Origin: Pseudidiomarina andamanensis
Lineage (GTDB): Bacteria; Pseudomonadota; Gammaproteobacteria; Enterobacterales; Alteromonadaceae
Reading direction: 5' to 3'
NCBI RefSeq assembly: GCF_009734345.1
Contig: NZ_CP032551.1
Location: 270,001 to 302,000 of the forward strand
DNA length: 32,000 bases
The position numbers and the translations under genes are program-made. Below are positions 2,086 to 30,551 of the stretch, one piece after another (position 1 is the stretch's first letter; every line of letters starts with the position of its first letter). A model generated the notes under the pieces. The model was given only the letters and a program-made list of their open reading frames with translations. It was not told the origin of the DNA and did no database searches.

Positions 2086-2086
2086 G

Positions 2087-7716: not shown

Positions 7717-7735
7717 TCAACTGCTTATTTTTAGA

Positions 7736-10387: not shown

Positions 10388-10405
10388 GTGCTGTTTTTAC
10401 TCCGT

Positions 10406-11874: not shown

Positions 11875-11889
11875 GGTTACCTCGTTACT

Positions 11890-13332: not shown

Positions 13333-13435
13333 AAACCTCTGCGCTCATCTACTTCGTTGTGTCGCTTATCACATTGATACGACCACAATCGGACACCACA
13401 TCATAAAAGGGTAGCTATTTTAGCTTGAACCAAGC

Positions 13436-14320: not shown

Positions 14321-14364
14321 AATGTCCTTACGCGGTGTTTTAACCGCACCCAGAGAGAAGAATA

Positions 14365-14718
14365 ATGAACCGTTATCTTATCACGATCACTTTACTTACG
14401 TTGAGCAATGTTTTTATGACCTTTGCGTGGTACGCGCATTTAAAAAACATGGCCGACAAACCTTGGATTATTGCTGCATTTGCGAGTTGGGGTATCGCTC
14501 TTATTGAATATTTGCTGCAAGTTCCCGCGAACCGAATTGGTTACGAGGTAATGAATCTTGGACAATTAAAAATTCTACAAGAAGTGATCACACTCTCAGT
14601 TTTTGTGCCATTTGCCTTGTTTTACATGAAAGAAAAATTAACTTGGGATTATTTATGGGCTGGGCTGTGTATTTGTGGCGCAGTATTTTTTATTATGCGA
14701 AGTAAGTTAACTGGGTAA
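14365..14718 (+). CDS. Small DMT-superfamily membrane protein (DUF486-like)
   Basis: 117 aa with four hydrophobic helices. The N-terminus SNVFMTFAWYAHLK is typical, from memory, of the DUF486/DMT small-protein family. Confidence 0.7.
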   Translation: MNRYLITITLLTLSNVFMTFAWYAHLKNMADKPWIIAAFASWGIALIEYLLQVPANRIGYEVMNLGQLKILQEVITLSVFVPFALFYMKEKLTWDYLWAGLCICGAVFFIMRSKLTG

Positions 14719-14732
14719 ATAGGTATAAATAT

Positions 14733-15857: not shown

Positions 15858-15859
15858 AC

Positions 15860-15985
15860 CGTTATTGGCTATTCGTTATTGGTTACTCGAAGGGGAAATT
15901 CGGGAAACAAAAAAGCGTCATTGGTTAATCGTAATTTGATGTTATTAGCTTTTACCAATAACGAATAACGACTAACCAATAACGC
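15860..15985. repeat. MITE-like inverted pair of heptad-array repeats, with arms of 4 x 7 nt (consensus SANTAAC)
   Basis: The left arm 15861-15888 reads on the minus strand GAGTAAC CAATAAC GAATAGC CAATAAC. The right arm 15956-15983 reads on the plus strand CAATAAC GAATAAC GACTAAC CAATAAC. The arms are about 23/26 complementary and are separated by about 67 nt. The element lies between convergent ubiF-like and tRNA-Leu. Confidence 0.7.
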
Positions 15986-16018
15986 TTTCAGTCTGTTCAT
16001 TGCGGTTCACCACCGAGG

Positions 16019-16105
16019 TGGTGCGGAGGGGGGGACTTGAACCCCCACGAGCGTTAGCTCACTAGCACCTGAAGCTAGCGCGTCTACCAATTCCGCCACC
16101 CCCGC
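16019..16105 (-). tRNA. tRNA-Leu (anticodon CAG)
   Basis: The reverse complement reads GCGGGGGTGGCGGAATTGGTAGACGCGCTAGCTTCAGGTGCTAGT...GGTTCAAGTCCCCCCCTCCGCACCA. It has a long variable arm and encoded CCA, and is near-identical in its conserved parts to E. coli tRNA-Leu(CAG). Confidence 0.93.
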
Positions 16106-16123
16106 AATACACAGGGGAAAAAG

Positions 16124-16198
16124 TGGCTGGGGTATCAGGATTTGAACCTGAGAATGGCGGGATCAAAACCCGCTGCCTTACCGCTTGGCTATACCCCA
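16124..16198 (-). tRNA. tRNA-Gln (anticodon UUG), copy 1
   Basis: The reverse complement reads TGGGGTATAGCCAAGCGGTAAGGCAGCGGGTTTTGATCCCGCCATTCTCAGGTTCAAATCCTGATACCCCAGCCA. 75 nt with a cloverleaf and encoded CCA. Confidence 0.93.
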
Positions 16199-16228
16199 AC
16201 ACTGGGTGCATCAAGAAGAGAGTGGCGA

Positions 16229-16303
16229 TGGCTGGGGTACCAGGATTTGAACCTGGGAATGGCGGGATCAAAACCCGCTGCCTTACCGCTTGGCTATACC
16301 CCA
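16229..16303 (-). tRNA. tRNA-Gln (anticodon UUG), copy 2
   Basis: Same sequence as copy 1 except for a compensatory pair in the T-stem (CCAGG/CCTGG versus TCAGG/CCTGA). Confidence 0.93.
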
Positions 16304-16331
16304 ACAGAATATACCGCCTGACAGTTTGAGT

Positions 16332-16416
16332 TGGTGCGGACGGAGAGACTTGAACTCTCACGCCGTGAGGCACTGGAACCTAAATCCAGCGTGTCTACCA
16401 ATTCCACCACGTCCGC
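16332..16416 (-). tRNA. tRNA-Leu (anticodon UAG)
   Basis: The reverse complement reads GCGGACGTGGTGGAATTGGTAGACACGCTGGATTTAGGTTCCAGTGCCTCACGGCGTGAGAGTTCAAGTCTCTCCGTCCGCACCA. It resembles E. coli leuW. Confidence 0.92.
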
Positions 16417-16433
16417 CCAAAAGGGAATTTGAT

Positions 16434-16510
16434 TGGTGGCTACGGCGAGATTCGAACTTGCGACCCCAGCATTATGAGTGCTGTGCTCTAACCAGCTGAG
16501 CTACGTAGCC
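16434..16510 (-). tRNA. Elongator tRNA-Met (anticodon CAU)
   Basis: The reverse complement reads GGCTACGTAGCTCAGCTGGTTAGAGCACAGCACTCATAATGCTGGGGTCGCAAGTTCGAATCTCGCCGTAGCCACCA. It is nearly identical to E. coli metT/metU elongator tRNA. Confidence 0.93.
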
Positions 16511-16554
16511 AACATCAAATTTTAATCAAACTGCACTCGTTGAGTGCGGCGCGT

Positions 16555-16583
16555 ATTATGCAAATCAGGGGCGAAAGCGTCAA
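16555..16583 (-). promoter_or_regulatory. Sigma70 promoter of the tRNA operon, with a GC-rich discriminator (stringent type) and an A/T-rich upstream region
   Basis: On the minus strand: TTGACG (16583-16578), a 17-nt spacer, CATAAT (16560-16555), then ACGCGCCGC. An A/T-rich tract (GGATTTTTTGAGAAAAAGAG) lies just upstream of the -35. The -10 lies about 45 nt upstream of tRNA-Met. Confidence 0.7.
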
Positions 16584-16717
16584 CCTCTTTTTCTCAAAAA
16601 ATCCATGATTTCTGCGCGATTGCTTAAAAAACGGATAGTTTGCTTATTTATTCGGCGACTAATTCACTGATTGATACGAAACTGTCGATAATACGCGCAC
16701 TATTTTTAATTAGGGTG

Positions 16718-17383
16718 TTACCACGGTAGTGAGTCACCGTTGCTATGCTTAAATTGACCGGTGGTTGCAATGGATAGTTCGTCGATACGTTGAATTAATC
16801 GTTCGGCTGCCGTTTCTGCACTGATATCGCCGGCGTTATTCACCATCTCGGTTTGTACGAAGCCGGGATGTAGCATGGCGACAGCAATGCCATCGTCTTT
16901 CAGGTCATTCGCTAATGAAACGCCTGCCGCGTTTAAGGCGGCTTTACTCATGCGGTAGCCATAGTAGGCACCGGAACCATTATCAGCCATTGAGCCCATG
17001 CGGCTGGTGATCATGATAACTTTGCTACCTTTGTGAAGATTGTCTCGAAGGGCATCCGTCACTAACAGTGGTCCCATCGCATTCACTTTGAATTGCGCTT
17101 CAATGGTTGACGTTGAGAGACTGCCAAGTTGTTCACGCTCAAGCAAGCCGGCATTATTAATTAATATGTCGATGGCTTTGCCGTGCAGCTGTTGGCTCAA
17201 TTGAGTAATACTCTCAAGGTTCGTCACATCGATGTTCTCAATAATCGAAACCCCGAGCGCTTTGAGTTCGTTGGAAGCTTTACGACAGACTGCGGTGACG
17301 GAGTCGCCGCGTTGCTTAAATTGTGTCGCGAGAGCCAATCCAATGCCGCGGTTAGCACCGGTAATTACAATATGTTGTGACAT
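16718..17383 (-). CDS. Short-chain dehydrogenase/reductase (classical SDR, CsgA/C-factor-like subgroup)
   Basis: TGANRGIG cofactor motif, NNAG motif and YRMSK catalytic Tyr/Lys. 221 aa. Confidence 0.85.
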   Translation of the reverse strand: MSQHIVITGANRGIGLALATQFKQRGDSVTAVCRKASNELKALGVSIIENIDVTNLESITQLSQQLHGKAIDILINNAGLLEREQLGSLSTSTIEAQFKVNAMGPLLVTDALRDNLHKGSKVIMITSRMGSMADNGSGAYYGYRMSKAALNAAGVSLANDLKDDGIAVAMLHPGFVQTEMVNNAGDISAETAAERLIQRIDELSIATTGQFKHSNGDSLPW

Positions 17384-17392
17384 TTCTACTCC

Positions 17393-18778
17393 TTAAATTA
17401 AGTTTTTCGGATTGAGCAGTTGTTCGAGTTTATCGCGAGGAATATCGGTCATCTCTACAGCGACCTCGAGAATAGGGCGCTGCTGCTGGTAGGCTTGTTT
17501 GGCAATTTCAGCGGCTTTGTTGTAGCCAATCTCCCGATTCAATGCGGTTACCAAGATCGGATTTTTTGCCAAGGCCTCATTTAAGCGATCGTGATTGACC
17601 GTGAAGTCAGCGATCGCTTTATCAGCAAGCGCATGTGCAGCGTTGCTGAGTAGCTCGATACTTTGCAATTGATTAAAAGCTATCACTGGTAGCATCACGT
17701 TCAATTGAAAATTGCCTTGCTGGGCGGCGATAGAAACCGTGTGGTGGTTGCCAGCAACTTGTGCGCAAACCATCGTAACAGCTTCAGGAATAACCGGATT
17801 TACTTTGCCTGGCATGATGCTGCTACCCGGTTGCAAGGCTTTTAGACTAATTTCGCCAAGCCCTGCCAGCGGACCGCTATTCATCCACCGTAAGTCATTA
17901 CTTATTTTCAGCAACACAGCACTTAAAGCGTTTAACTGACCACTTAGTGCCAAGTTGACCTCTTGGCCCGCAATACCGGCGAACGGATTTGAGCTTGCTT
18001 CAAATTTGGTTGCGGTGCGTTGACTTAGGAAATGGCAAAAGCGCTCGCCAAATTTTTCTGGTGCATTAATTCCCGATCCTATTGCAGTGCCACCTTGTGG
18101 CAAACTGCTGGCTAGCGACAATGCATGGTTTAAACCACTTTCAACATGTTCAAGTTGCGTGCCCCACGCTCGTAACTCTTGCGCCATGCTTAATGGCATA
18201 GCATCCATCAAATGAGTGCGACCGGTTTTAATGGTTTCAGTGAGCGTCTTAGCTTTCTGTTCAATCGTATGTCTGAGATGCGTTAATGCCGGTATTAAGT
18301 TCGTTCGCAGACTCAGCACGCTACTAACCAAAATTGCGGTAGGAATCACATCGTTACTGCTCTGGCTGGCATTCACATGATCGTTTGGATGTATTTGCAC
18401 ACCACAGAGCTTGTCGGCCAGTGACGCAATCACTTCGTTCATATTCATGTTGGTACTGGTGCCAGAGCCCGTTTGGAATATATCAAGCGGGAATGCCTCA
18501 TCAGCTTGCCCAGCTATAATAGCTTCAACTGCTTTATGAACCGCATCAGCTTGCTGCTTGGAAATAACGTCGGCCTCACAATTGGCATCGGCTGCTGCAG
18601 CCTTAATATGTGCAAGCGTATAGATAAATTCGATGGGGAACACCAGTTTGCTCAACTGAAAATTTTGCCTAGCACGCTCGGTTTGAGCGCGCCACAGGGC
18701 ATTCTGGGGCACTTCAACTTGACCCATGCTATCTTTTTCAACGCGTGTATCAGTCTTCTCGTTGTTTCCTTTTTGCAT
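17393..18778 (-). CDS. Class II fumarate hydratase / aspartase-superfamily lyase (FumC-like)
   Basis: GSSIMPGKVNP signature loop. N-terminal EKDSMGQVEVPQNALWRAQTER and QTGSGTSTNMNMNEV are FumC-like, but the residues after the SS loop (PVIPEAV) are AspA-like. 461 aa. Confidence 0.8.
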   Translation of the reverse strand: MQKGNNEKTDTRVEKDSMGQVEVPQNALWRAQTERARQNFQLSKLVFPIEFIYTLAHIKAAAADANCEADVISKQQADAVHKAVEAIIAGQADEAFPLDIFQTGSGTSTNMNMNEVIASLADKLCGVQIHPNDHVNASQSSNDVIPTAILVSSVLSLRTNLIPALTHLRHTIEQKAKTLTETIKTGRTHLMDAMPLSMAQELRAWGTQLEHVESGLNHALSLASSLPQGGTAIGSGINAPEKFGERFCHFLSQRTATKFEASSNPFAGIAGQEVNLALSGQLNALSAVLLKISNDLRWMNSGPLAGLGEISLKALQPGSSIMPGKVNPVIPEAVTMVCAQVAGNHHTVSIAAQQGNFQLNVMLPVIAFNQLQSIELLSNAAHALADKAIADFTVNHDRLNEALAKNPILVTALNREIGYNKAAEIAKQAYQQQRPILEVAVEMTDIPRDKLEQLLNPKNLI

Positions 18779-18897
18779 GTTCTACCCCTATGGGTTAACA
18801 AATGTAGTGCATTTGTTGTAGCCGATCAGTTAAGCTGATCTCAATTGATTATATTCAGTATTTATTAAATAACTTCACCCTTAAGCATGGGGTCACA

Positions 18898-19572
18898 ATG
18901 ACCAAGTTTCAAATTGTTTTCCTAATGACATTATGGTTCACGCAGGGTTTTTCGGCAGTTTCCGCTCAGGAAACGACGTCTGTAGACGCATTGACCGTGA
19001 CAGTACTCGATAGCAATCAGCAGCCGTTGGCGCTTGCGGTTGTGAGTGTCAATGGTGTTGAGTTGGCAACATCTGAACAACCTACTGCAATTATGGATCA
19101 AGTAGATCGATTGTTTGTGCCCTATATTTTAGCCGTTCGTGAAAACGCGCAAGTGGCATTTCCGAACCGCGATAACATTCGTCATCAAGTGTATTCATTT
19201 TCAGAAGTTAAACCGTTCGAACTCCCTTTATATAGCAATCGTGAAGCTCCAGAGATTCAATTCGAGAATTCGGGCATTGTGGTGTTAGGCTGCAATATCC
19301 ATGATCATATGCAGGCTTATATTTATGTTAGCCCGCACGATTTATCTCGCCAAACAAACGCGCAGGGAACAGTAACGTTGCCGTTAGGCGCAACGCAAGT
19401 GCACGTTTGGTATCCGTCATTAACTGACGTGGTAACAGAAGAAATGGTGGTACCGATAGTGGCTGGACAAAAGCAATTGACGGTGACGTTACCGGTACAA
19501 GCACAACACCAAAGTCCGCCGCCCGCATCAGCATTGCAACAACGTTTTAATCGTCGGAAAAATAATAATTAA
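18898..19572 (+). CDS. Secreted cupredoxin-like protein, of the family I recall being annotated 'methylamine utilization protein'
   Basis: Signal peptide MTKFQIVFLMTLWFTQGFSAVSA|QE. Core segment VAFPNRDNIRHQVYSF...GIVVLGCNIHDHM carries His...Cys-x2-His-x2-Met in amicyanin-like spacing. GGGG lies 5 nt upstream of the ATG. The stop abuts the next gene's start (TAAATG). Confidence 0.7.
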   Translation: MTKFQIVFLMTLWFTQGFSAVSAQETTSVDALTVTVLDSNQQPLALAVVSVNGVELATSEQPTAIMDQVDRLFVPYILAVRENAQVAFPNRDNIRHQVYSFSEVKPFELPLYSNREAPEIQFENSGIVVLGCNIHDHMQAYIYVSPHDLSRQTNAQGTVTLPLGATQVHVWYPSLTDVVTEEMVVPIVAGQKQLTVTLPVQAQHQSPPPASALQQRFNRRKNNN

Positions 19573-21879
19573 ATGAAGATTAAAAGTTTTCGGTCACGAT
19601 TGTTATTGGTATTTACCGCACTTGCAGGTGCGGTTTTGCTGTTTGCGCTAATTGCTATTTGGTTAGCCACGTCACAACAATCTGAGCGAACGCTAGAACG
19701 CGAACTTGAAGTGAGTGAACGTGTTTTTGCTGAGCTTGTTGATGTGCGAGCTCAGCAATTACAACAAGCCGCCGAAGTTTTAACGACAGATTTCGGGTTT
19801 CGCGAGGCGATTGCCAGCAGTGATGAGAACACCATTATTTCAGCGCTAGTCAATCACGGTCAGCGTATTGGTACTGATCTGATTGTCGTTCAATCTCCGC
19901 AGGGCGAGGAAATTGCCGCAACACACGCAACACAGTTATTGCCACCTTTAGCGACGCTAACTAATGCCCCCGTTCAAGCTCAATTCGTTACCGTTAATGA
20001 AGAGATTTTTCAGATAGTGACGGTGCCGGTTCGCGCGCCGAATTTAATCGCATGGGCAACACTCGGGTTTGCTATTGATGATGATTTTGCGGTTTTAATG
20101 CGACAGCTGACCCATGCCGATATTACCTTTTTGAATCAACTTACCGGGACGATCTATGCAACCAGTTTAGATTCAGAACAGCGCGAGATGATGGCGGAGA
20201 ATGCAAGTAACTTGCAGCAACGCTTAGCTGCCAATGATATTGCAGCTCATGTTTCGCAATACAACCGTGATAGCGCTTCCATTAATACTGAAGCAAACTT
20301 GATGATTATTTTCAGTACCGACAAGCTTGAAGCAACTCAGGAGTTTTTAACACTGCAACGTCAGTATATTGGTATTGCACTGGCAACGTTGATCTTTGCC
20401 GGACTACTTGCGACCTTTACCGCCCGAAAAATAAGCCAACCAATCACAGCGCTTACTGACGCTGCTAAAAAACTGGGTGCCGGTGACTATCGAGAGCCAG
20501 TTTCGATTCATCGCGCCGATGAGTTTGGTGCGTTGAGTGATGCTTTTGAAGGAATGCGTCAGGGAATAGCAGAGCGCGAGCAACAAATTATATTTCAATT
20601 AGAACATGATTTACTGACCGGATTACCGAATCGAGTTTCCATTCGAGCTTTGTTGAAAAGTGCTATCGAGTCGCAACAGAGTGGCTATGTTGTCCTGATG
20701 AATGTTGCTCGCTTTGGCGAAGTGAATGACCGCTTTGGGCAGCAAGTTGGCGATGAGTTGTTGCGTATGATTGCAGAACGCCTACGCGCGGCGGTTCCGA
20801 AGAATTGGTCTGTGGGGCACCTCGGTGGCGATGAATTTGTGCTGGTCGGTAAGCGACAGAGTGAACCACAGGTGAATGCTCTCATTGTCTCGCTAAAAAC
20901 TGAATTGAGCTTGCCCTGGTGGTTAGAAGAAACCAGTTATATGTTGGATTTTCATGCTGGTTATTTGGCATATCCTCATGCTGCCGATGATGCCGATAGC
21001 ATACTTCGGCGAGCTCAACTTTGTGCGCGCCAAGCGAAACGCGCAAGTGTTTTTGCGGTTGCGTACAGTCAAGGGATGGACGAGCAATATCTACGGCGTT
21101 TACAGATTGTTCAATCACTACCAAGTGCGGTTCGAGAACAGCGCTTGCAATTGCACTTTCAACCGAAGCTGTCGTGTCAAACCGGGCAGGTACTCGGTGT
21201 TGAGGCATTATTAAGGTGGCGTGATGAACAACTTGGTGTGGTTCGGCCCGATGAATTTATTCCGTTGGCGGAGCAAACGGGGGAAATTCAGCGTTTAACG
21301 CGATGGGTTTGTGGCGCCGCGTTGGACCAATTGCAACTGTGGCACGAGCAGGGGTTGCAATTGAGCTTAGCAATTAACTTGTCGGCACTTGATTTGCAAT
21401 GGTCTGAATTAGTTGCGTTTGTCACTGACTCGGCGAAGCAGCGAGGTTTGTCGCCGGCATGGATTACTTTAGAAGTAACCGAAAGTGCAGTGATGGTAGA
21501 CCCTGAACAGGCTATTTCGCGTTTGCAGGAGTTACGTGAAGTAGGATTCAAAATTGCGATTGACGATTATGGCACCGGATATGCGTCGCTGGCGCAACTC
21601 AAACGTCTACCAGCCGATGAGCTGAAGCTCGATCGATCGTTCATTCAACACATTGCATCGATACCTGAAGATGAAACTATTGTGCGCTCAACGATTTTGC
21701 TCGCACATGAATTGAAGTTAACCACTGTAGCCGAGGGTATTGAGGAAGATTCCGCTTGGCAAGTTTTAAAACAGTTGGGCTGTGATACGGTGCAAGGTTA
21801 TTACTTCAGTCGACCGCTCGCAGCGGCGCAGTTCGAAGAATGGTTGGATAATTACCAAAGAGAGAGTAGGCATGGGTAA
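19573..21879 (+). CDS. Inner-membrane signalling protein: TM, periplasmic sensor domain of about 230 aa, TM, HAMP, GGDEF, EAL (probable c-di-GMP phosphodiesterase)
   Basis: 768 aa. TM helices at about aa 11-32 and 266-284. HAMP at about 285-338. GGDEF motif at 418-422, preceded by LTGLPNR. EAL at 544-546 with the full catalytic set (LLRW, INLS, EVTES, DDYGTGY, KLDRSF, AEGIE, QGYYFSRP). Confidence 0.9.
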   Translation: MKIKSFRSRLLLVFTALAGAVLLFALIAIWLATSQQSERTLERELEVSERVFAELVDVRAQQLQQAAEVLTTDFGFREAIASSDENTIISALVNHGQRIGTDLIVVQSPQGEEIAATHATQLLPPLATLTNAPVQAQFVTVNEEIFQIVTVPVRAPNLIAWATLGFAIDDDFAVLMRQLTHADITFLNQLTGTIYATSLDSEQREMMAENASNLQQRLAANDIAAHVSQYNRDSASINTEANLMIIFSTDKLEATQEFLTLQRQYIGIALATLIFAGLLATFTARKISQPITALTDAAKKLGAGDYREPVSIHRADEFGALSDAFEGMRQGIAEREQQIIFQLEHDLLTGLPNRVSIRALLKSAIESQQSGYVVLMNVARFGEVNDRFGQQVGDELLRMIAERLRAAVPKNWSVGHLGGDEFVLVGKRQSEPQVNALIVSLKTELSLPWWLEETSYMLDFHAGYLAYPHAADDADSILRRAQLCARQAKRASVFAVAYSQGMDEQYLRRLQIVQSLPSAVREQRLQLHFQPKLSCQTGQVLGVEALLRWRDEQLGVVRPDEFIPLAEQTGEIQRLTRWVCGAALDQLQLWHEQGLQLSLAINLSALDLQWSELVAFVTDSAKQRGLSPAWITLEVTESAVMVDPEQAISRLQELREVGFKIAIDDYGTGYASLAQLKRLPADELKLDRSFIQHIASIPEDETIVRSTILLAHELKLTTVAEGIEEDSAWQVLKQLGCDTVQGYYFSRPLAAAQFEEWLDNYQRESRHG

Positions 21880-22723
21880 ATTAACTGGGCTTGTTATGCC
21901 AGCTTTGGCGGTTGCAACACTGTTTGTAAGCCAGAGTGCGATGGCTGATTTTGGCCGAATTATTGCAACGGGCGGTTTAACAACAGTCGAAGGCAGCGGC
22001 GGTGGCGGCCTAGTCCCATGGGCAACACTCTCGAGCTATGCCGAAGAAGGGCAGTGGGGCGGAACTGTCGCCTATAATCAAGCGGATGTGGATGACTATA
22101 AATTGACGGTAAAAGCTGCCACGCTGTCTTTTGATAATCGTTGGGAATTTAGTGTCGCCAAACAACAATTTGATTTACTAAGTCTTGGTGGAAGCCTGAA
22201 GCAGGATATTTATGGGATTAAATATCGAATTGCTGGTGATATTTTGTATGGTGATCTGCCGCAATTTACGGTTGGCATCCAGCATAAACGAAATCAGTCT
22301 TTGGACTTACCGCAGGCGGTTGGTGCACAAGATGATACAGGAACAGATTTCTATATAAGCGGCGCCAAAGTTTGGCTTGATGGTCTCTGGCATCGCACGT
22401 GGTTGGCGAACCTAACATTGCGAGCCACTAAGGCTAACGAAATGGGGTTACTTGGTTTCGGTGGTGATGCGAATAACAGTTATGAGCTACAGAGCGAGCT
22501 TGCCGTCGGTATGTTCATTAATCGGCATTGGGTGATTGGTGTGGAATATCGACAGAAACCCAATAACTTAGGCTTCGCGAAAGAGCATGACTGGCATGAC
22601 GTTTTCGTGGGATGGTTTCCGCATAAGCGTGTTGCAGTCGCGTTGGCATACACGCAATTGCAATCAATAGCCGGTGCTGATGGTCAAGATGGCATCTATG
22701 GTTCACTTCAGGTTACGTTTTAA
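21872..22723 (+). CDS. Secreted beta-barrel-like protein, probably outer membrane (DUF3034-like, assigned from memory)
   Basis: Signal peptide MGKLTGLVMPALAVATLFVSQSAMA|DF, a Gly-rich GGLTTVEGSGGGGLVPWATL segment, alternating-hydrophobicity strands and the C-terminus YGSLQVTF (terminal Phe). The ATG at 21872 overlaps the upstream stop by 8 nt (ATGGGTAA) and follows GAGAGTAGG. The ORF-track start at 21782 is an in-gene extension. Confidence 0.7.
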   Translation: MGKLTGLVMPALAVATLFVSQSAMADFGRIIATGGLTTVEGSGGGGLVPWATLSSYAEEGQWGGTVAYNQADVDDYKLTVKAATLSFDNRWEFSVAKQQFDLLSLGGSLKQDIYGIKYRIAGDILYGDLPQFTVGIQHKRNQSLDLPQAVGAQDDTGTDFYISGAKVWLDGLWHRTWLANLTLRATKANEMGLLGFGGDANNSYELQSELAVGMFINRHWVIGVEYRQKPNNLGFAKEHDWHDVFVGWFPHKRVAVALAYTQLQSIAGADGQDGIYGSLQVTF

Positions 22724-22734
22724 GGAGATTCACA

Positions 22735-23151
22735 ATGATTCGAGCATACTTGCTTGGCTTCATTATCATGTTGGCGTTGCCGGCGAACGCGACCGAACGA
22801 ACGTTATATGACGAGCTTGGTCAGCAGCAGGGTATAAGCCAGCTCATGGAAGCCTTTATTCTCGAAATTGCTGAAGATGAGCGTGTTATTCATCACTTTG
22901 AAAATGTCGATATCGACCGTTTTCACCGCATGCTGTCGGAGCATATTTGTGATCTCTCTGGTGGCCCTTGCGATTATTCTGGCGAATCGATGGTGACGGT
23001 GCATACCGGAATGGATATTTCGCGTGCTGAATTTAATGCGATTGTCGAGCACTTGATGACCGCCATGGATCAGCAAAAGCTGCCGGTTAGTACACAAAAC
23101 CGATTACTTGCTATACTCGCTTCATTCCATAAGGAAGTGATTCACCAATAA
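22735..23151 (+). CDS. Group 1 truncated hemoglobin (trHbN-like) with an N-terminal Sec-type signal peptide
   Basis: Aligns without gaps to Synechocystis GlbN as I recall it, from TLYDELG through GGPCDYSGESMVTVHTG. The proximal His is conserved. The leader MIRAYLLGFIIMLALPANA|TE precedes the globin core. AGGAG lies 7 nt upstream of the ATG. Confidence 0.8.
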   Translation: MIRAYLLGFIIMLALPANATERTLYDELGQQQGISQLMEAFILEIAEDERVIHHFENVDIDRFHRMLSEHICDLSGGPCDYSGESMVTVHTGMDISRAEFNAIVEHLMTAMDQQKLPVSTQNRLLAILASFHKEVIHQ

Positions 23152-23172
23152 CGAGAGCAGGTTTTCCCCGCC

Positions 23173-24549
23173 ATGATAAAAATAAAAATACCGCACACCT
23201 TAGTGCTGATGTTGTACATGATGATTGCAGCATTGATTCTTACCTGGGTTATTCCAGCTGGCGAATTTCAACGTACGGTTAATGATATTGGACAAACCGT
23301 TGTTCAGCCAGGCACTTACAGTGTTCTTGAAAAACAACCATTGCTGAGTCCGTTGACGTTACTTACGGTTATTCCGCAAGCGTTAGGCGATGCCCAGGCG
23401 GTTATCTTCTTTGTGCTATTAATTGGTGGCGTCATGGGTATTTTGCGCGCTACCGGTATGTTAGATGCGTTAATTGGCTTATTGCTTAAGAAGTTTGCCG
23501 ATAAGACCGGCTTGTTAATTCTCGGTGGCATGCTGACCTTCGGTATTTTCTCTGCCTTAATTGGTGTGGCTGAAGAGTATTTGATTTTTGTCGCCATGCT
23601 GGTGGCGCTCTGTCGAGCATTGAAACTTGATGGCATAACAGCAATGGGTATTTTGATAGTGGGTTATGGTATTGGCTATGGCTTATCTCTATTTAATCCA
23701 TTTACGTTACTGATTGCCCAAGCCGTTGCCGAAGTACCGCCGGCATCGGGATTATGGTACCGACTCGTTTTATGGCCAATATTGTTTGGCATCGCATTTC
23801 ATCATGTCTATGGCTATGCCAAACGCGTTGCTGCTGATCCTGCCGCCTCATTGCTTGCGGATATAACGCCGGCAAAAACCAATGAACAAGATGACTACCC
23901 AGCACTAAATGGCCGTCATAAAATCATTCTACTTGGCTTTGTCGCCGTACTTGGCGTGCTGATTTGGGGCATTAAAGTTCATGGTTGGTATTTGGTTGAG
24001 CTGAGTGCGTTATTTTTAGGTTTCGGTTTGTTTGCCGCTCTGGTTGCTAAAATGGGTGCTAGCGACGCAGCGAACAAGTTTATTGAAGGCGCTGCTGAAT
24101 TAACGGCAACGGCATTGCTCATTGGCTTTGCTCGATCGATTGCTATGATTATGGAACAGGGGCAGGTACTCGACACGGTTATTTATTACCTAGCGATGCC
24201 GGTTGAAGCTTTTGGGGCGCATTTTGGTGCGGTTAGTATGCTCATCATTCAAAGTATACTGAATTTGTTTATTCCTTCAGGAAGCGGACAAGCCTTTGTC
24301 ACCATGCCGATTATGGTCCCGATTGCCGATACAGCTGGTATTGGTCGTCAAATTGCGGTGTTGGCGTTCCAAATGGGCGATGGCTTGATGAACATGATTG
24401 TGCCGACTAATCCTGTATTAATGGGAATTTTAGGTTTAGCAGGTGTGCCCTACGAGCGTTGGTTTAAGTTCGTTGCCCCGTTGATGTTGAAGTTGTTATT
24501 TGCCTGTGCGATAGCAATGATTGTTGCTGTCGCGATAGGTTATCAATAA
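23173..24549 (+). CDS. YfcC-family (DcuC/C4-dicarboxylate-anaerobic-carrier-like) membrane transporter
   Basis: 458 aa with 10 or more TM helices. The N-terminus IPHTLVLMLYMMIAALILTWVIPAGEFQR resembles E. coli YfcC. It starts 21 nt after the globin stop with no intervening hairpin. Confidence 0.8.
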   Translation: MIKIKIPHTLVLMLYMMIAALILTWVIPAGEFQRTVNDIGQTVVQPGTYSVLEKQPLLSPLTLLTVIPQALGDAQAVIFFVLLIGGVMGILRATGMLDALIGLLLKKFADKTGLLILGGMLTFGIFSALIGVAEEYLIFVAMLVALCRALKLDGITAMGILIVGYGIGYGLSLFNPFTLLIAQAVAEVPPASGLWYRLVLWPILFGIAFHHVYGYAKRVAADPAASLLADITPAKTNEQDDYPALNGRHKIILLGFVAVLGVLIWGIKVHGWYLVELSALFLGFGLFAALVAKMGASDAANKFIEGAAELTATALLIGFARSIAMIMEQGQVLDTVIYYLAMPVEAFGAHFGAVSMLIIQSILNLFIPSGSGQAFVTMPIMVPIADTAGIGRQIAVLAFQMGDGLMNMIVPTNPVLMGILGLAGVPYERWFKFVAPLMLKLLFACAIAMIVAVAIGYQ

Positions 24550-24574
24550 TTAGAAAACGGACATAATTTGCGAT

Positions 24575-25489
24575 ATGGATAGTGCAACATTGAACGAAGG
24601 TACGAAGACTGCGGCGGTACAAGAAGCTGTGCCGCCCTGTTTGGTATCGACACGTTGGCTGGCTGCGAACATTAAAAAAAGCCATGTTCATGTGTTGGAT
24701 GCGAGCATGACAAAGGTTGTTGGGCGCACGCCACTGGAATACAACGAACTCACAGTTATTCCCAATTCAATTTATTTAGACTTAGAGCAGCGGTTAACAG
24801 ATACCTCGTCGGCGCTACCCAATACCTTTCCGACCGCTGAGCAAGTGACACTAGCGCTACAAGAACTGGGTGTTAATAAAACCGATACGGTGGTTGTGTA
24901 TGACAACCAAGGCATTTACTCATCGCCACGAGCTTGGGTGATACTAAAAGCCATGGGGTTTGATAAGGTTTGTATTCTTGATGGTGGTTTGCCACAGTGG
25001 TTAGCCGATAACTATCCTGCCGCAACTGAATACGCGTTGCCGCGAGCAGCACGCGGCAACTTTGTCGCAAAGTTCAATAAAAGCTGGCTGGTGTCGTCAA
25101 AAGAAGTGCTCAAAGCAACCCAAAGTGGTTCAAGTAGTATTATCGATGCACGCTCACCAGACCGCTTCAATGGCACGAAACCAGAGCCAAGAGAAGGGAT
25201 GCGCAGTGGCCATATTCGCAGCTCTTTTAATTTGCCATTTCTCGAAGTTCTCGATGATAACCGTTATAGAAAACCTGATGACCTCGAAGAAATGTTTATT
25301 TCGTTGGTGGGCCCCAAATCACCCCATTTAATTTTGACCTGTGGTTCAGGTATCACGGCATGTATTTTATTAGTTGCGGCAAGAATCGCCGGTTTTACTG
25401 AAGTGCAACTCTATGATGGGTCATGGTCCGAATGGGGCGCCAATCCACAGCTCCCCATCGAACCAATCTCTTCTTCGAATAACCAATAA
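24575..25489 (+). CDS. sseA: Two-domain rhodanese, 3-mercaptopyruvate/thiosulfate sulfurtransferase (SseA-like)
   Basis: Tandem rhodanese domains with active-site loop CGSGITAC. 304 aa. The last codons and the stop lie inside the heptad repeat. Confidence 0.82.
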   Translation: MDSATLNEGTKTAAVQEAVPPCLVSTRWLAANIKKSHVHVLDASMTKVVGRTPLEYNELTVIPNSIYLDLEQRLTDTSSALPNTFPTAEQVTLALQELGVNKTDTVVVYDNQGIYSSPRAWVILKAMGFDKVCILDGGLPQWLADNYPAATEYALPRAARGNFVAKFNKSWLVSSKEVLKATQSGSSSIIDARSPDRFNGTKPEPREGMRSGHIRSSFNLPFLEVLDDNRYRKPDDLEEMFISLVGPKSPHLILTCGSGITACILLVAARIAGFTEVQLYDGSWSEWGANPQLPIEPISSSNNQ

Positions 25490-25505
25490 CGAGTAACCAA
25501 TAACG
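25477..25505 (+). repeat. Solo copy of the heptad-array repeat (GAATAAC CAATAAC GAGTAAC CAATAAC G)
   Basis: It has the same 4 x 7-nt architecture as the arms at 15861-15888 and 15956-15983, and shares CAATAACGCTTT with the right arm. It fills most of the 19-nt gap between the convergent sseA-like stop (25489) and ychF stop (25509). Confidence 0.65.
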
Positions 25506-25508
25506 CTT

Positions 25509-26600
25509 TTACACGTTAAACCGGAACAAGATCACATCGCCATCTTTCACAATATACTCTTTACCTTCTTCACGACGCTTACCAGCTTCCTTCGCACCTT
25601 GTTCACCCTTGAATTCAATATAGTCGTCAAAGCCAACAACAACGGCACGGATAAAGCCTTTTTCAAAATCGGTGTGAATTTTACCAGCAGCTTGTGGCGC
25701 CGTTGCACCTACTGGAATAGTCCAAGCGCGAACTTCCTTCACACCTGCAGTGAAATAGGTTTGTAAGTTTAATAGCTGATAGCCGCCACGAATAACACGG
25801 TTTAAACCTGGTTCAGTTAAACCAAGGTCAGCCATGAACTCGGCCTTTTCCTCGTCATCAAGCTCGGCAATTTCTGATTCGATTTTAGCACACACAGGAA
25901 CAACAATCGCATTCTCTTTGCTGGCGATTTCGCGCACTTTATCGAGGTATGGATTATTCTCAAAACCATCGTCATTCACGTTAGCGATGTACATGGTTGG
26001 CTTCATGGTGAGTAAGTTGTAGCTACGAATCGTTGCCTTTTCGTCGTCCGATAGCGCTACTGAACGCGCCATTTCGCCGCTTTCTAGAGCAGGTAAAAGC
26101 TTTTGTAACACGGCAATTTCAGCGGCTGCTTGCTTATCACCACCTTTCGCTTTTTTACCCTGACGGTGTATCGCTTTTTCGACGCTGTCTAAGTCAGCAA
26201 GAGCAAGCTCAGTATTGATGACTTCGATGTCTTCGGCTGGGTCAACCTTACCAGCAACGTGAACAATGTTGTCGTTTTCAAAACAACGAACCACATGGCC
26301 AATCGCATCTGTCTCACGAATGTTCGCTAAGAACTGATTACCAAGGCCTTCGCCTTTTGAGGCGCCTTTTACGAGACCGGCGATATCCACAAACTCCATG
26401 GTGGTCGGAACCACACGTTGTGGATTCACAATTTTAGCGAGTTCATCAAGACGCGGATCAGGAACCGCGACCACACCCGTATTTGGCTCGATGGTACAGA
26501 AAGGGAAGTTTGCAGCTTCAATACCTGCTTTGGTCAGCGCGTTAAACAGCGTTGATTTACCTACGTTCGGCAAGCCGACGATACCACACTTGAATCCCAT
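25509..26600 (-). CDS. ychF: Redox-regulated ribosome-binding ATPase YchF (Obg-family)
   Basis: G1 motif GLPNVGKST. 363 aa with a TGS-like C-terminus. Lies in pth-ychF synteny. Confidence 0.96.
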
Positions 26601-26602
26601 GC

Positions 26603-27196
26603 TTATTTCTCTCTCTGTGCTTTGAAACTATGTAAATGCTGCGTTGCCGCGCGCAGGTCTTGCTGCATTAGTATATCAATGCTGCGGCATGCTTCCGTAA
26701 TGGTATCGTCCATCAATAGTTGATCAGCTTGAGGCGCTTTACCAAGCACCCAGCCGGTAACTTTGCTCTTGTCACCTGGATGACCGATACCGATACGTAA
26801 GCGATGAAAATCAGGCGTTCCCAGTCGCGCTACAATGTCTTTGATGCCGTTATGCCCGCCAGTGCCGCCTCCGGTTTTAAACTTCGCCACACCGGGTGGG
26901 AGATCAAGCTCGTCGTAAGCGACTAAAATTTCATGCGGCTCAATTTTGTAGAAGTTTGCGAGGGTAGCGACGGCATTGCCGCTTCGATTCATAAATTGCA
27001 TTGGCAGCAACAGACGTAAATCCGTGGCGCCTTTTTGAATACGTGCGGTATGACCGAAGAATTTGGTTTCAGGCTGAAGTGTTTGGCCGTGCATGCGAGC
27101 ATATTGCTCGACTAACCAGAAGCCTGCATTGTGTCGTGTTTGGGAGTATTCGGGGCCTGGATTACCCAGGCCCACGAGTAAGCGAATGGTCGACAT
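26603..27196 (-). CDS. pth: Peptidyl-tRNA hydrolase
   Basis: [20 protein letters not shown] and [11 protein letters not shown] motifs. 197 aa. Confidence 0.95.
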
Positions 27197-27202
27197 AAGA
27201 CC

Positions 27203-27877
27203 TTATTCAGCGTCTTTATCTTCTTCTTTCGCTTCTTTAGCGGTAGGAACTTCAGCAGATACTTCTTCTTCAGTTTCTTCCACTTCTTTTTCGACACGCG
27301 GTGCAGTAATTGAAACAACTGCTTGGTCGTGGTCTTCACCTTTAGTCAATTCAACCAACTCAACACCTTTAGGCATGTTCAAGTCAGTTAAGTGCAAGGT
27401 TTCGCCCAGTTTCAAGTTCGCGATATCTACTTCAACGTACTCAGGCAGATCTTTTGGTAAGCAAGAAACTTCTAGGTCTGCAATGTGGTGAACCACAACG
27501 CCGCCTTCTTGTTTCACGCCAACTGCTGATGCTTCATTGATGAAGTGAACTGGTACGTGAGTATGAAGTTTTTGACCTTTAACAACACGTTGGAAATCCA
27601 AGTGAGTTAATTTTGGCTTGTACGGGTGACGTTGAACGTCTTTCAAGATCGCTTCGTGCTTCTTGCCGTCGATAACCAAAGTCAAAATGTGCGAGTAGAA
27701 AGCTTCGTGGTCAGCCATGTTGTTCACTTTGTTGTGATCCAACGTGATTGAAACTGCTTCTTTATCGGCACCGTACAAAATTGCAGGCACTTTTTCCGCA
27801 CGACGCAGGCGGCGGCTCGCACCTTTCCCTGTATCCGTACGGAGTTCTGCTTGAATAGTAAAATCGATTGTTGACAT
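27203..27877 (-). CDS. rplY: 50S ribosomal protein L25, long Ctc form
   Basis: 224 aa with an L25/Ctc N-domain (RRLRRAEKVPAILYG), a beta-barrel C-domain and an acidic tail. Confidence 0.9.
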   Translation of the reverse strand: MSTIDFTIQAELRTDTGKGASRRLRRAEKVPAILYGADKEAVSITLDHNKVNNMADHEAFYSHILTLVIDGKKHEAILKDVQRHPYKPKLTHLDFQRVVKGQKLHTHVPVHFINEASAVGVKQEGGVVVHHIADLEVSCLPKDLPEYVEVDIANLKLGETLHLTDLNMPKGVELVELTKGEDHDQAVVSITAPRVEKEVEETEEEVSAEVPTAKEAKEEDKDAE

Positions 27878-27960
27878 GTGGAGTGTCTCCGTTAAATAAA
27901 AATAAGCCGGATATTCGCGACCAAATACCCGACGTGTTCCTCAAAAATTTGTTTTGCTTA

Positions 27961-27997
27961 TTTGAGGGCGCGAAATATTACCACTGGCGCCCTCAAA
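27961..27997 (-). terminator. Hairpin immediately downstream of prs (possible terminator or attenuator before rplY)
   Basis: TTTGAGGGCGC (27961-27971) pairs perfectly with GCGCCCTCAAA (27987-27997) around a 15-nt loop. It starts 7 nt after the prs stop. The large loop and the lack of a clean U-run on the minus transcript lower my confidence. Confidence 0.4.
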
Positions 27998-28003
27998 TTT
28001 CAA

Positions 28004-28951
28004 TCAATACTCGAACATTGCTGAGATTGATTCTTCGTTGCTGACGCGGCGTAGCGCTTCAGACAACATTCCGCTCAAGGTTAGCTGATGCACCTTGTCT
28101 AAGGCTTTCATTTCAGCACTTAATGGAATGCTATCGGTAACAATCACGCGGTCGATATGCGAATCGCGAATATTCTCAAAAGCGTTGCCTGAGAAGACTG
28201 GGTGAGTGGCATAAGCGAATACACGACGTGCGCCGTTTTTCTTGAGCGCTTCAGCAGCTTTGCACAAAGTGCCGCCGGTATCGATCATGTCGTCAACAAT
28301 AATGCAGTCGCGGTCTTGAATGTCACCGATGATGTGCATGACCTGTGACTCGTTGGCACGTGGACGACGTTTATCGATAATAGCGAGGTCGATATCGTTA
28401 AGTAATTTTGCAATAGCGCGAGCTCGAACCACACCACCGATGTCAGGTGAAACTACAACAGGGTTGTGGAAGTCTTGTTGACGTAGGTGTTCCATCAATA
28501 CCGGGCTTCCGAACACGTTATCGACCGGCACATCGAAAAAGCCTTGAATTTGTTCAGCGTGCAAGTCAACCGTTAACACACGGTCAACCCCAACACTTGA
28601 TAAGAAGTCAGCGACAACTTTCGCGGTGATTGGTACACGAGCCGAACGCACTCGACGGTCTTGGCGTGCATAACCAAAATATGGCATGACCGCAGTAATA
28701 CGACCTGCAGAAGCACGACGCAACGCATCAACCATCACGATAAGTTCCATGAGATTGTCGTTGGTTGGTGCACACGTTGATTGGATGATGAAAACGTCAG
28801 AACCACGAACATTTTCATTGATCATGACGCTGATTTCACCGTCACTAAAACGGCCAACTTCAGCATCACCGAGTTTGATATATAAGCGGTCGGCAATTTT
28901 TTGGGCGAGTTCTGGCGTCGCATTGCCAGCAAAGAGCTTCATGTCAGGCAC
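28004..28951 (-). CDS. prs: Ribose-phosphate pyrophosphokinase
   Basis: [17 protein letters not shown] and the PRPP-binding loop [11 protein letters not shown]. 315 aa. Confidence 0.97.
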
Positions 28952-28952
28952 A

Positions 28953-29831
28953 CTAAACCTCAGTCTTGTTGGTTAGGTTCACAGTTGAAGCCTGCCGCAG
29001 TTGCTGGCAGACCGGGTTTTCATTGAGACCTCGCGCGACAAACCCTGTCCATTGTGCAGGCATCCTTTGCAATGCAGCACGGGCATCTGTCTCGTTATCA
29101 AATCGACCGAAGATGCATGCACCCGTGCCAGTCAATCGAGACGGCGCGTATTCTACCAACCAGTCGAGGGCCTTGGCAACTTCTGGATAGAGTCGACGGA
29201 CCAGCGCTTCGCAGTCGTTACTGGTATTTTCCCAGCTCCAATGTGGCCATTCGAGCGGTGGATGCTGACGCGGTAGGTCAGGGTGTTTGAAAATACTTGG
29301 CGTACTAATTTGTACACCAGGGTGGATAACCAAATACCAAGGGCAGGGCGGTTGTGCCGGCTGTAAATGCTCACCTACACCTTCAGCAAAGGCTGCTTGT
29401 CCATGCACAAAAACAGGCACATCAGCACCGAGCTGTAAGCCTATTGTGGCTAATTCATTATCGTTTAATGGCAACTGCCAAAGATGGCGTAGTGCGAGCA
29501 ATGTTGTTGCTGCATCAGACGAACCGCCGCCCAAGCCGCCACCAAAGGGTAAGTTCTTATGAATATGGATATGAATGCCAGGTAAACTTTGCTGAGATTG
29601 TTCGGTGAGTAGCTTCGCAGCCTTCAATACGAGGTTGTCATCGGTTTCGAGAGCTGGTTCAGTACAACTCAAGGTGATTTCCGAGTCTTTACGCAATGCG
29701 AAAGATAATTCGTCACCGAAATCAATAAATTGAAATAGCGTTTGCAAATTATGGTAACCATCGGCGCGTTGGCCGACAATATGCAAAAATAGATTTAATT
29801 TAGCGACCGCTGGTAAAGTTAAAAGCGCCAT
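28953..29831 (-). CDS. ispE: 4-diphosphocytidyl-2-C-methyl-D-erythritol kinase
   Basis: [21 protein letters not shown] and GHMP motif [15 protein letters not shown] prefer the ATG at 29831 because it has AGG 7-8 nt upstream and matches the E. coli N-terminus length. The ORF track extends to 29858, which has no SD. Confidence 0.9.
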
Positions 29832-30451
29832 TGCGATACCTGCAGTTTTAACCGCCATGCGTCGGTCGTTAAGTTAATGCTATGAGGTAAAAAAGTGCCT
29901 TGTATGAGTTCATACTCTCCGAGTTGTGCGCGCCAAACTTGATCAGCAGCCAGCATGACAAAATTTGACAATAGCGCATAAGATTGTTGCTGGTGCTGCT
30001 GCAATTGATATTGTTTCTCGACCATACTCGGTAGTTCCTGACCGATGACAATGGCGCTAATCTGATTCATCGGTAAATCCAATCGGAAATATTGCCACAG
30101 TAATTCCTGAGCGGTTGTGGCACGATACTCCTTGCCATCTTCATCGATTAACACAGCTTGACCATTTGATTGTTCAAGCTTGGCGAGCGTGCCGCGCAAT
30201 GGGTGTGAGAAGCGCATGGTTAACTGAACAGCACTTGAGTACCAATCTACATAAAGCCCGTGGCGATCATCCGCACGTAAGTCGAATAAGGCCATTTGAC
30301 CGCGCAAGCGCCAGTTATCCAGTTGCTTAAGTTGTTGCTGCTGCGCGAGCACCGCCTCGGCATCAACATCACGCATACTTGGTGGCTCAGGAACACTGCT
30401 GCAAGCAGTCAACCAAGCACTTGTGAGTACTACTAAAAGGAGACGTTTCAT
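29819..30451 (-). CDS. lolB: Outer-membrane lipoprotein receptor LolB
   Basis: From the ATG at 30451 the protein begins MKRLLLVVLTSAWLTACSS (lipobox LTAC) and is 210 aa, against 207 for E. coli LolB. Lies in lolB-ispE-prs synteny. The ORF-track start at 30583 would overlap hemA. Confidence 0.85.
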   Translation of the reverse strand: MKRLLLVVLTSAWLTACSSVPEPPSMRDVDAEAVLAQQQQLKQLDNWRLRGQMALFDLRADDRHGLYVDWYSSAVQLTMRFSHPLRGTLAKLEQSNGQAVLIDEDGKEYRATTAQELLWQYFRLDLPMNQISAIVIGQELPSMVEKQYQLQQHQQQSYALLSNFVMLAADQVWRAQLGEYELIQGTFLPHSINLTTDAWRLKLQVSQWRF

Positions 30452-30551
30452 TGGTTTTGCTATCCCTGTTCGTGCGCTTTTCATCATGCGGGCTTTCACG
30501 TACAATTGCCAGCGTTTCGCAGTAGTTAGAGGCTCGCAATTTTTTGCTATT

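Follow-up and report, generated by a model that had tools for sequence, protein, structure and literature searches.

A predicted exported truncated haemoglobin encoded with a cupredoxin, a dCache_3 receptor and a DUF3034 protein in a conserved cassette

Bacterial globins have been studied almost entirely as cytoplasmic proteins, be they nitric oxide (NO) dioxygenases, O2 carriers or globins fused into sensors. What, then, might a truncated haemoglobin with an apparent signal peptide do in Pseudidiomarina andamanensis? Its gene lies in a 32,000-nucleotide (nt) stretch of the chromosome (NZ_CP032551.1, positions 270,001 to 302,000 of the forward strand; this whole stretch is the window, and its numbering is used below). 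A sequence-only reading had argued against a cytoplasmic NO dioxygenase and for a periplasmic sensor or carrier. Comparison across genomes shows that the globin is the last gene of a conserved cassette that encodes, in order, a cupredoxin, a receptor with a dCache_3 domain, a DUF3034 protein and the globin, and that is reached from three entry points. We are much more confident of the identity, the predicted export and the cassette membership of the globin alone than of the full mechanism that we propose for it.

The globin, its leader and its cysteine pair

The features of the globin gene are the following.

22735-23151, plus strand: globin open reading frame (ORF), 138 amino acids (aa), in which the first in-frame start after the stop is ATG
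22722..22727, plus strand: Shine-Dalgarno sequence AAGGAG, 7 nt 5' of the globin ATG, read directly from the sequence
22735..22791, plus strand: predicted Sec/signal peptidase I-type signal peptide, 19 codons, ending PANA with TE after the cleavage site, read from the translation
22792..23151, plus strand: mature truncated haemoglobin N (trHbN) domain and stop codon, from Pfam, alignments and AlphaFold
22858-60, plus strand: Ile42 (B10), from gapless trHbN alignments
22921-23, plus strand: Phe63 (E7), from gapless trHbN alignments
22933-35, plus strand: Leu67 (E11), from gapless trHbN alignments
22948-50, plus strand: Cys72 (E16), codon tgt, in the mature globin
22969-71, plus strand: Cys79 (EF loop), codon tgc, in the mature globin
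23002-04, plus strand: His90 (F8, proximal), aligned to His F8 of 3aq5 and HbN

The window globin matches Pfam PF01152 (Bac_globin) with an E-value of 6.6e-15 and 55.8 bits (cut-off 21) over profile positions 1-119 of 121; NCBIfam has no model that matches the globin, the DUF3034 protein or the cupredoxin. Its best solved relatives are group-1 truncated haemoglobins, those of Tetrahymena (3aq5), S. benthica (HbN) and M. tuberculosis (HbN), and all three alignments are gapless. The gapless alignment to cyanobacterial GlbN that had been suggested earlier did not hold, the match being weak and gapped (106 query residues against 110, E ~3e-5). An AlphaFold model made with 100 homologues has a mean pLDDT of 90.2, with low confidence only in the first ~20 residues. 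Foldseek superposes it on 3aq8 with a root-mean-square deviation (rmsd) of 1.0 Å over 117 residues (TM-score 0.96, target-normalised), on S. benthica HbN (8ugz) with 1.0 Å over 116 residues, and on 1idr with 0.9 Å over 114 residues. Sequence identity is 30-31% to S. benthica HbN, as against 24-26% to the structures of the TrHbN-1 type.

The gapless trHbN alignments agree with the earlier residue assignments throughout, placing Ile at B10, Phe at E7, Met66 at E10, Leu at E11 and a His at the proximal position, so that Ile, Phe and Leu stand where a Tyr or Gln had been sought in the distal pocket; they also place Ile at G8, Phe55 at CD1 and Ile45 at the B13 position. Across 100 homologues, His F8 is invariant (100/100), B10 and G8 are each I/V/L in 100%, E11 is L/M/I/F/V in 100%, E7 holds Phe (94%) or Leu (6%), and CD1 mainly Phe (78%) or Tyr (21%). 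Met occupies E10 in 67%, with Gly, Lys or Gln in about one third. The Tyr B10 and Gln E7/Gln E11 network, the hallmark of TrHbN-1, is absent from the window globin and from the 100 homologues. Among the glycine motifs, the EF motif reads G76-G77-P78 with G77 invariant, and the AB motif reads LGQQQG, in which only G29 is invariant and for which many orthologues have LGG.

Group N has been split by Lecomte and co-workers into TrHbN-1 and the little-studied TrHbN-2, which includes S. benthica HbN and has a consensus of hydrophobic residues at B10, E7, E11 and G8 with Phe favoured at CD1 (PMC11904497). Low-affinity N sub-clades with hydrophobic E7, E11 and G8 were described by Bustamante et al. 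(PMC4720485). The window globin and its 100 homologues match this pattern at B10, E7, E11, G8 and CD1, and by residue pattern we classify the window globin as a 2-on-2 truncated haemoglobin of group N, apolar in its pocket and TrHbN-2-like. The apolar pocket is therefore not special in itself, because it is already the consensus of TrHbN-2 and of the low-affinity N clades. Haem binding is assumed because His F8 is invariant and the globin fold is kept.

The leader, MIRAYLLGFIIMLALPANA followed by TE, has a single basic residue, a 12-residue hydrophobic core and Ala at -3 and -1. By inspection, which was how all signal peptides and lipoboxes (L-x-[GAS]-C) were assigned, it divides into an n-region (MIR), an h-region (AYLLGFIIMLAL) and the small residues of PANA ahead of T. 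The ORF start, the Shine-Dalgarno sequence and the residues at -3 and -1 thus bear out the 19-aa hydrophobic leader of the sequence-only reading, as they do its end at ANA before TE. The leader likewise has no twin-arginine motif: S/T-R-R-x-F-L-K is missing from a window leader that holds one Arg only. Sec export of a haem-b protein had been thought unusual, which needs correction, since cytochrome b562, a Sec-exported periplasmic haem-b protein, is a precedent.

Export appears to be a trait of the whole globin family, as predicted from the leaders. An N-terminal hydrophobic extension is found in 34 of 34 aligned homologues. When globin N-termini were reconstructed in 82 non-redundant loci, 60 had a lipobox, none of them with Asp at +2, 3 had atypical Cys motifs, and 19 had AxA-type leaders with no lipobox (the Pseudidiomarina/Idiomarina lineage, including the window, and three others). 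No consistent twin-arginine motif was found across these loci, RR occurring in a few orthologues outside the consensus context. The lack of Asp at +2 predicts, by the E. coli rule, an outer-membrane lipoprotein. An exhaustive search of 1.84 billion cluster representatives returned 2958 globin relatives, 1072 of them at E <= 1e-10; among the best 150, a lipobox or hydrophobic leader is present in 82 of 90 single-domain proteins, the exceptions being mostly fragments. Because the orthologues carry leaders or lipoboxes and the three neighbouring products are predicted to be envelope proteins as well, these comparisons support export over the location expected of a cytoplasmic NO dioxygenase. They suggest that truncated haemoglobins that are lipoproteins or secreted form a large clade (108 of the 150 best 50%-identity representatives) with dedicated partners.

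Many relatives carry 2 to 11 tandem trHbN domains (P0221-P0251). P0221, P0227, P0229 and P0233 among them are lipoproteins or secreted by their leaders, with or without the cysteine pair described below, and others are leaderless and eukaryotic-looking (such as P0222, 1882 aa with 11 domains). The tandem-globin lipoprotein P0490 has no cassette at its locus (L100), so not all exported trHbN proteins belong to the module considered here.

All of 100 family members have both Cys72 and Cys79, and the mature part is otherwise free of cysteine. Among the 314 trHbN domains of the 150 best representatives, 133 have both cysteines, 170 have neither, 11 have Cys72 alone and none has Cys79 alone. A leader is present in 102 of the 108 pair-bearing proteins (the six exceptions are mostly truncated), and all 26 leaderless proteins likewise are without the pair. 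Every pair-bearing domain has apolar residues at B10, E7 and E11. Cys79 falls within the GGP-x EF loop, and Cys72 is E16, the position of Cys51 in S. benthica HbN, in whose crystals the EF-loop segment is flexible and poorly ordered (PMC11904497). A periplasmic disulfide, as had been suggested, fits these counts because the pair is invariant and nearly confined to leader-bearing proteins; Cys72(E16)-Cys79(EF loop) would then be a structural disulfide of an exported protein, stapling the EF loop.

A conserved four-gene cassette

Upstream of the globin are three genes in the same direction, and downstream are two further genes that are specific to the lineage.

18898..19572, plus strand: gene 1, predicted exported amicyanin-like cupredoxin with flanking beta-sandwich parts, 224 aa, from conserved ligands and profile
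19573..21879, plus strand: gene 2, predicted inner-membrane receptor, 768 aa, with a first transmembrane segment (TM1), dCache_3, TM2, HAMP, GGDEF and EAL, from Pfam and hydrophobic segments
21872..22723, plus strand: gene 3, DUF3034 (PF11231), predicted 12-stranded outer-membrane beta-barrel, from Pfam and AlphaFold
23173..24549, plus strand: DcuC/YfcC-like transporter, lineage-specific and outside the cassette, from Pfam and NCBIfam
24575..25489, plus strand: 3-mercaptopyruvate sulfurtransferase-like tandem rhodanese, a lineage-specific neighbour, from Pfam and NCBIfam

The globin-based start comprised 80 genome loci; the non-redundant set used for upstream-gene counts comprised 82. DUF3034 lies immediately 5' of the globin in every locus of the globin-based set, and the cupredoxin is present in every one with enough upstream sequence. 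These loci come from Idiomarinaceae, Cellvibrionaceae, Pseudohongiellaceae, Halieaceae and Saccharospirillaceae, as well as from Bermanella, Gilvimarinus, Dokdonella and Lysobacterales. Starting from DUF3034, a Bac_globin gene adjoins in loci of Marinobacter, Granulosicoccus and Idiomarina ramblicola, and starting from the cupredoxin, the four genes occur in identical order in Halomonas, Alteromonas and Paraglaciecola. In the searchable literature we found no published description of the cassette or of DUF3034 function, and as a system the cassette may be new. Metagenome bins labelled 'Klebsiella' (L026, L027, L028, L030) also carry it, together with a gene for a TonB-dependent receptor; their other neighbours are unlike those of Enterobacteriaceae, so the labels are probably wrong.

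Within 18898-23151, genes 1 and 2 are adjacent, genes 2 and 3 overlap by 8 nt and a gap of 11 nt separates gene 3 from the globin. An operon is predicted from two observations, co-direction and gaps of -8 to 25 nt; promoter and terminator counts over 18700-25700 did not exceed those of shuffled sequence and are hence uninformative on its limits. The transporter and the sulfurtransferase were considered as partners in connection with sulfide and rejected, because Pseudidiomarina-type loci are the only ones in which they adjoin the cassette; in Idiomarina ramblicola (L092) the synteny of the window is kept without these two genes. Their position between the cassette and ychF might hint at a lineage-specific link to sulfur, or be a simple insertion.

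Gene 1 begins with the signal peptide MTKFQIVFLMTLWFTQGFSA. Every one of 80 orthologues keeps its His96, Cys132, His135 and Met138 (C-x2-H-x2-M), within the motif FPNxDxxRHxVYSFS ... LGCNIHDxM. The family profile aligns all four copper ligands with those of the NirK cupredoxin domain (1.3e-3), amicyanin (0.06) and pseudoazurin, at E-values that are marginal across cupredoxins (1.3e-3 to 0.25). Relatives are named 'methylamine utilization protein' (NCBI), 'plastocyanin' or 'cupredoxin' in databases. From the ligand set and these marginal matches, gene 1 is predicted to be an amicyanin-like type-1 copper protein.

The gene 2 product has hydrophobic segments at residues 8-30 and 264-285, which would place dCache_3 in the periplasm, and carries GGDEF at 418, EAL at 544 and DDYGTG at 664. 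EAL and DD(F/Y)GTG are intact in all 52 orthologues. GGDEF is intact in the window protein; of the 52 orthologues, 6 keep it, 22 have GSDEF in its place and 24 have no recognisable motif. Because the EAL motifs are always intact and GGDEF is mostly degenerate, phosphodiesterase activity would be the conserved output, and the family probably consists of phosphodiesterases with a regulatory pseudo-cyclase domain.

Gene 3 matches Pfam DUF3034 at 3.9e-101 and 338 bits (cut-off 25); its product has the signal peptide MGKLTGLVMPALAVATLFVSQSAMA and a C-terminus (...LQVTF) with a final Phe. The AlphaFold model has 12 strands and moderate confidence (pLDDT 70). Foldseek relates it to FapF, NanC, a COG4313 channel, KdgM and OmpG, which are 12- to 14-stranded, with TM-scores of only ~0.45-0.55, and the DUF3034 profile found no match among sequences of the PDB. 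The most conserved part of the family is a Gly-rich segment at residues 26-56 (GRxxATGGxTTxEGSxGGGLVPWATLSSYAE), which AlphaFold models at a pLDDT of ~35; this segment could be a plug, as in FapF and the COG4313 channels, or could bind a partner.

A proposed sensing module and its alternatives

The receptor is the part of the cassette that varies most informatively. A GGDEF-EAL receptor lies between the cupredoxin and the barrel gene in 48 of the 82 loci. In 14 others (Pseudohongiella type), a divergently transcribed receptor gene ends in a class III adenylate/guanylate cyclase; this receptor aligns to residues 1-338 of the window receptor (TM-dCache_3-TM-HAMP), and the two kinds have the periplasmic DFGFREA motif and other residues in common. 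A homologous TM-dCache_3-TM-HAMP receptor is thus adjacent in 62 of 76 evaluable loci, and of the rest of the 82-locus set 3 have something else upstream and 3 are ended by the contig. A third output accompanies a natural fusion protein of 541 aa (P0228), which consists of a leader, two globin domains with the cysteine pair and a cupredoxin that matches gene 1 (BLASTP 4e-19) and keeps its ligand motifs. The fusion gene overlaps the start of a gene for a dCache_3-HAMP-Ser/Thr protein kinase (L098, 6001-9848), and DUF3034 is not present in this locus. A fourth comes from activated sludge, where the gene of a distant globin with one domain is preceded by DUF3034 and followed by a 117-aa cupredoxin and then a HAMP/PAS histidine kinase. 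Receptor outputs therefore differ between genomes, being a cyclic di-GMP (c-di-GMP) enzyme, a class III cyclase, a Ser/Thr kinase or a His kinase.

Four outputs beside the same accessory proteins would be expected if those proteins supply the input of the receptor. Since the link to a periplasmic dCache_3 receptor is conserved while the output domain is swapped, a sensor role is favoured, and this comparison of genomes supports the periplasmic, sensor-like role suggested earlier. On balance we lean, if not strongly, towards an extracytoplasmic haem/copper sensing module that feeds the periplasmic domain of the receptor. The functional parts of all four products would sit in the periplasm or the outer membrane. 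The globin would leave the cytoplasm by the Sec route, lose its leader after Ala19, take up haem b in the periplasm through His90 and be stapled by the Cys72(E16)-Cys79(EF loop) disulfide. In most species it would be a lipoprotein, probably tethered to the outer membrane beside the DUF3034 barrel, and in Pseudidiomarina it would be soluble. The haem globin could then bind a small ligand (candidates are NO, carbon monoxide (CO), O2, peroxide and sulfide) or change its redox state, and the cupredoxin could exchange electrons with the haem. The dCache_3 domain would read the state of the globin-cupredoxin pair and so change c-di-GMP hydrolysis. Where a pocket holds no hydrogen-bond donor, stable binding of O2 is disfavoured, and NO or CO would be preferred, as they are by H-NOX and cytochrome c'. 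Poor O2 binding by an apolar pocket is consistent with how S. benthica HbN behaves (PMC11904497).

Several points weigh against this sensing module. In 14 of the 82 loci a gene for a TonB-dependent receptor lies 5' of the cassette and there is no signalling protein, and in Granulosicoccus the DUF3034-globin pair stands by itself; a signalling partner is therefore frequent, not obligatory. The periplasmic part of the His-kinase variant has no BLAST similarity to the window dCache_3, TM2-HAMP alone being alignable. The typical potential of a cupredoxin is above that of a typical globin haem, which makes reduction of the haem uphill, a difficulty that is avoided if the haem has a high potential or serves as the oxidant. 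Finally, the sensor proposal leaves the role of an outer-membrane barrel unexplained.

Some of the same observations suit a periplasmic redox enzyme, which we regard as a serious, if unlikely, alternative. Here the globin would draw electrons from the cupredoxin and act as a peroxidase, an O2 reductase or an enzyme that converts NO or nitrite, and the receptor gene would be a co-regulated neighbour or an independent sensor of the same stress. Bacterial cytochrome c peroxidases and nitrite reductases take electrons from pseudoazurin or azurin, an invariant set of type-1 copper ligands speaks for electron transfer, and the globin-cupredoxin fusion fits a donor-acceptor pair. The 14 loci with no adjacent signalling gene are also accommodated. 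Furthermore, peroxide and nitrite both react with S. benthica HbN, in which haem d is formed (PMC11904497), and O2 reductase activity has been proposed for periplasmic fusions of truncated haemoglobins to multihaem cytochromes in cable bacteria (PMC11976967, PMC12093952). However, the cassette includes neither a reductase nor a quinol-linked donor to the cupredoxin, and the distal pocket offers no acid-base or hydrogen-bonding catalytic residue. What counts most against an enzyme is that the sensor domain is kept while the output is exchanged four ways, which is typical of a sensory input and not of a detoxifying operon, although a dual role can be entertained.

Trafficking of haem or metal is improbable. 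The lipoprotein globin would serve as a haem shuttle or hemophore with the barrel, in some loci with the TonB-dependent receptor, and the cupredoxin would handle copper or the redox chemistry of iron. Barrel and globin are indeed the tightest pair of the cassette, a TonB-dependent receptor is encoded directly 5' in 14 loci, and the barrel resembles channels such as FapF and COG4313. That receptor, however, matched no haem, copper or siderophore receptor family, the cassette has no ABC importer, haem oxygenase or TonB/ExbBD genes, and in most loci a signalling receptor takes the place of the TonB-dependent one. A haem buried tightly by the invariant His F8 would be the opposite of what a transfer protein needs.

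Marginally more improbable still is a globin fold that serves no haem ligand chemistry, either as a binder of hydrophobic small molecules supplied through the COG4313-like barrel, or as an electron carrier like cytochrome b562 in which Met E10 closes a six-coordinate His-Met site. A fully apolar pocket, the frequency of Met E10 (67% of members), the relation of the barrel to channels proposed for hydrophobic compounds and the name of one DUF3034 homologue ('MetA-pathway of phenol degradation') can all be cited for it. It is opposed by the invariance of His F8, as well as by Met E10 itself, which gives way to Gly, Lys or Gln in about one third of members and is not an iron ligand in S. benthica HbN (PMC11904497). 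Least credible of all is a mis-called start with a cytoplasmic globin made from a downstream codon, a general possibility with nothing further in its favour, given that a strong Shine-Dalgarno sequence stands 7 nt ahead of the first ATG, that the window sequence has no in-frame start 5' of it, that starting at the next Met codons (12 and 38) would cost part of the leader or helices A and B, and that leaders and lipoboxes are conserved in function, not in sequence, across >80 orthologues.

To return to the sensing module, its generalisation is a more tentative claim, one that we would place just short of even: that an exported truncated haemoglobin with its conserved disulfide, an amicyanin-like copper protein and usually DUF3034 form a widespread, so far undescribed extracytoplasmic haem/copper sensory module of Gram-negative bacteria, which plugs into receptors with interchangeable outputs. 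If so, cells could sense a gas or redox signal in the periplasm instead of the cytoplasm. A sensor role for the globin would add a periplasmic branch to haem-based gas and redox sensing, supply a candidate input signal for the common but orphan dCache_3 receptor domain, and give functions to both DUF3034 and the proteins that databases call 'methylamine utilization protein'. A further question is how periplasmic apoproteins come by their haem b. Direct tests are feasible, since the cassette occurs in culturable Marinobacter, Halomonas, Alteromonas, Cellvibrio and Pseudidiomarina.

Relation to known systems and the surrounding genes

The closest characterised relative of the window globin is S. 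benthica HbN (8UGZ), which has Met E10 and Cys E16, forms no stable oxy complex and reacts with peroxide (PMC11904497). The two have in common the 2-on-2 fold, hydrophobic residues at B10, E7, E11 and G8, Met E10 and Cys E16. S. benthica HbN differs in being leaderless and treated as cytoplasmic, in having no EF-loop Cys and no reported cassette, and in its Tyr CD1 and His B13, where the window globin has Phe55 and Ile45. Signal peptides, the periplasm and lipoproteins are unmentioned in PMC11904497 and PMC4720485. The NO dioxygenases of the TrHbN-1 type (M. tuberculosis HbN, Tetrahymena trHb) have the same fold and align to the window globin with no gaps, but are cytoplasmic and depend on a Tyr B10/Gln E7/Gln E11 network in place of Ile/Phe/Leu.

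The only exported or lipoprotein trHbN that we found in the searchable literature are the fusions of cable bacteria, in which predicted periplasmic trHb domains joined to pentahaem cytochromes are proposed to act as an O2 reductase (PMC11976967, PMC12093952). They resemble the window family in their predicted periplasmic location and in being paired with an electron-transfer partner. They differ in that the partner is a fused c-type cytochrome, whereas the window family consists of stand-alone lipoproteins or soluble proteins accompanied by a cupredoxin, a barrel and a receptor.

In its proposed mode of working, the cassette would be most like the H-NOX/HaCE and NosP systems and would also resemble NspS-MbaA and YfiBNR, although it is homologous to none of them. 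In H-NOX/HaCE and NosP, which sense NO through haem, the haem protein is a separate one, apolar in its distal pocket and encoded beside the c-di-GMP enzyme (GGDEF-EAL) or kinase that it modulates; they differ from the cassette in having unrelated folds, a cytoplasmic location and neither a copper protein nor an outer-membrane partner. In NspS-MbaA, YfiBNR and LuxP-LuxQ, a GGDEF/EAL protein or kinase takes its cue, through its periplasmic domain, from an accessory protein in the periplasm, and YfiBNR includes an outer-membrane lipoprotein and a redox-sensitive disulfide protein. The proteins of these three systems are not homologous to those of the cassette and have no metal cofactors.

Globin-coupled sensors (HemAT, DosC/DgcO) also use a globin as sensory input, with outputs that include GGDEF. 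Theirs is a 3-on-3 globin fused to a cytoplasmic output, whereas the window globin is 2-on-2, separate and predicted to be exported. The layout of a globin-coupled sensor is therefore not seen here: the 138-aa globin stands apart, and the receptor carries dCache_3 and not a globin. The periplasmic haem protein cytochrome c' has an apolar distal pocket; it binds NO and CO but not O2. Like cytochrome b562, it is a four-helix bundle and no globin, and neither of the two has such a cassette.

The rest of the window (1-18778 and 25509-31802) consists of core housekeeping genes, among them those for PBP2, rlmH, nadD, holA, lptE, leuS, lnt, corC, ybeY, phoH, miaB, fumarase, ychF, pth, L25, prs, ispE, lolB and hemA. 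Because its flanks are of this kind, the cassette is chromosomal and not on an obvious mobile element. Five tRNA genes lie at 16019-16510 on the minus strand (Leu-CAG, Gln-TTG, Gln-TTG, Leu-TAG and Met-CAT), overlain at 16062-16373 by a 103-aa ORF that is probably spurious. The nearness of hemA, lolB and lnt to the cassette is ordinary gammaproteobacterial synteny.

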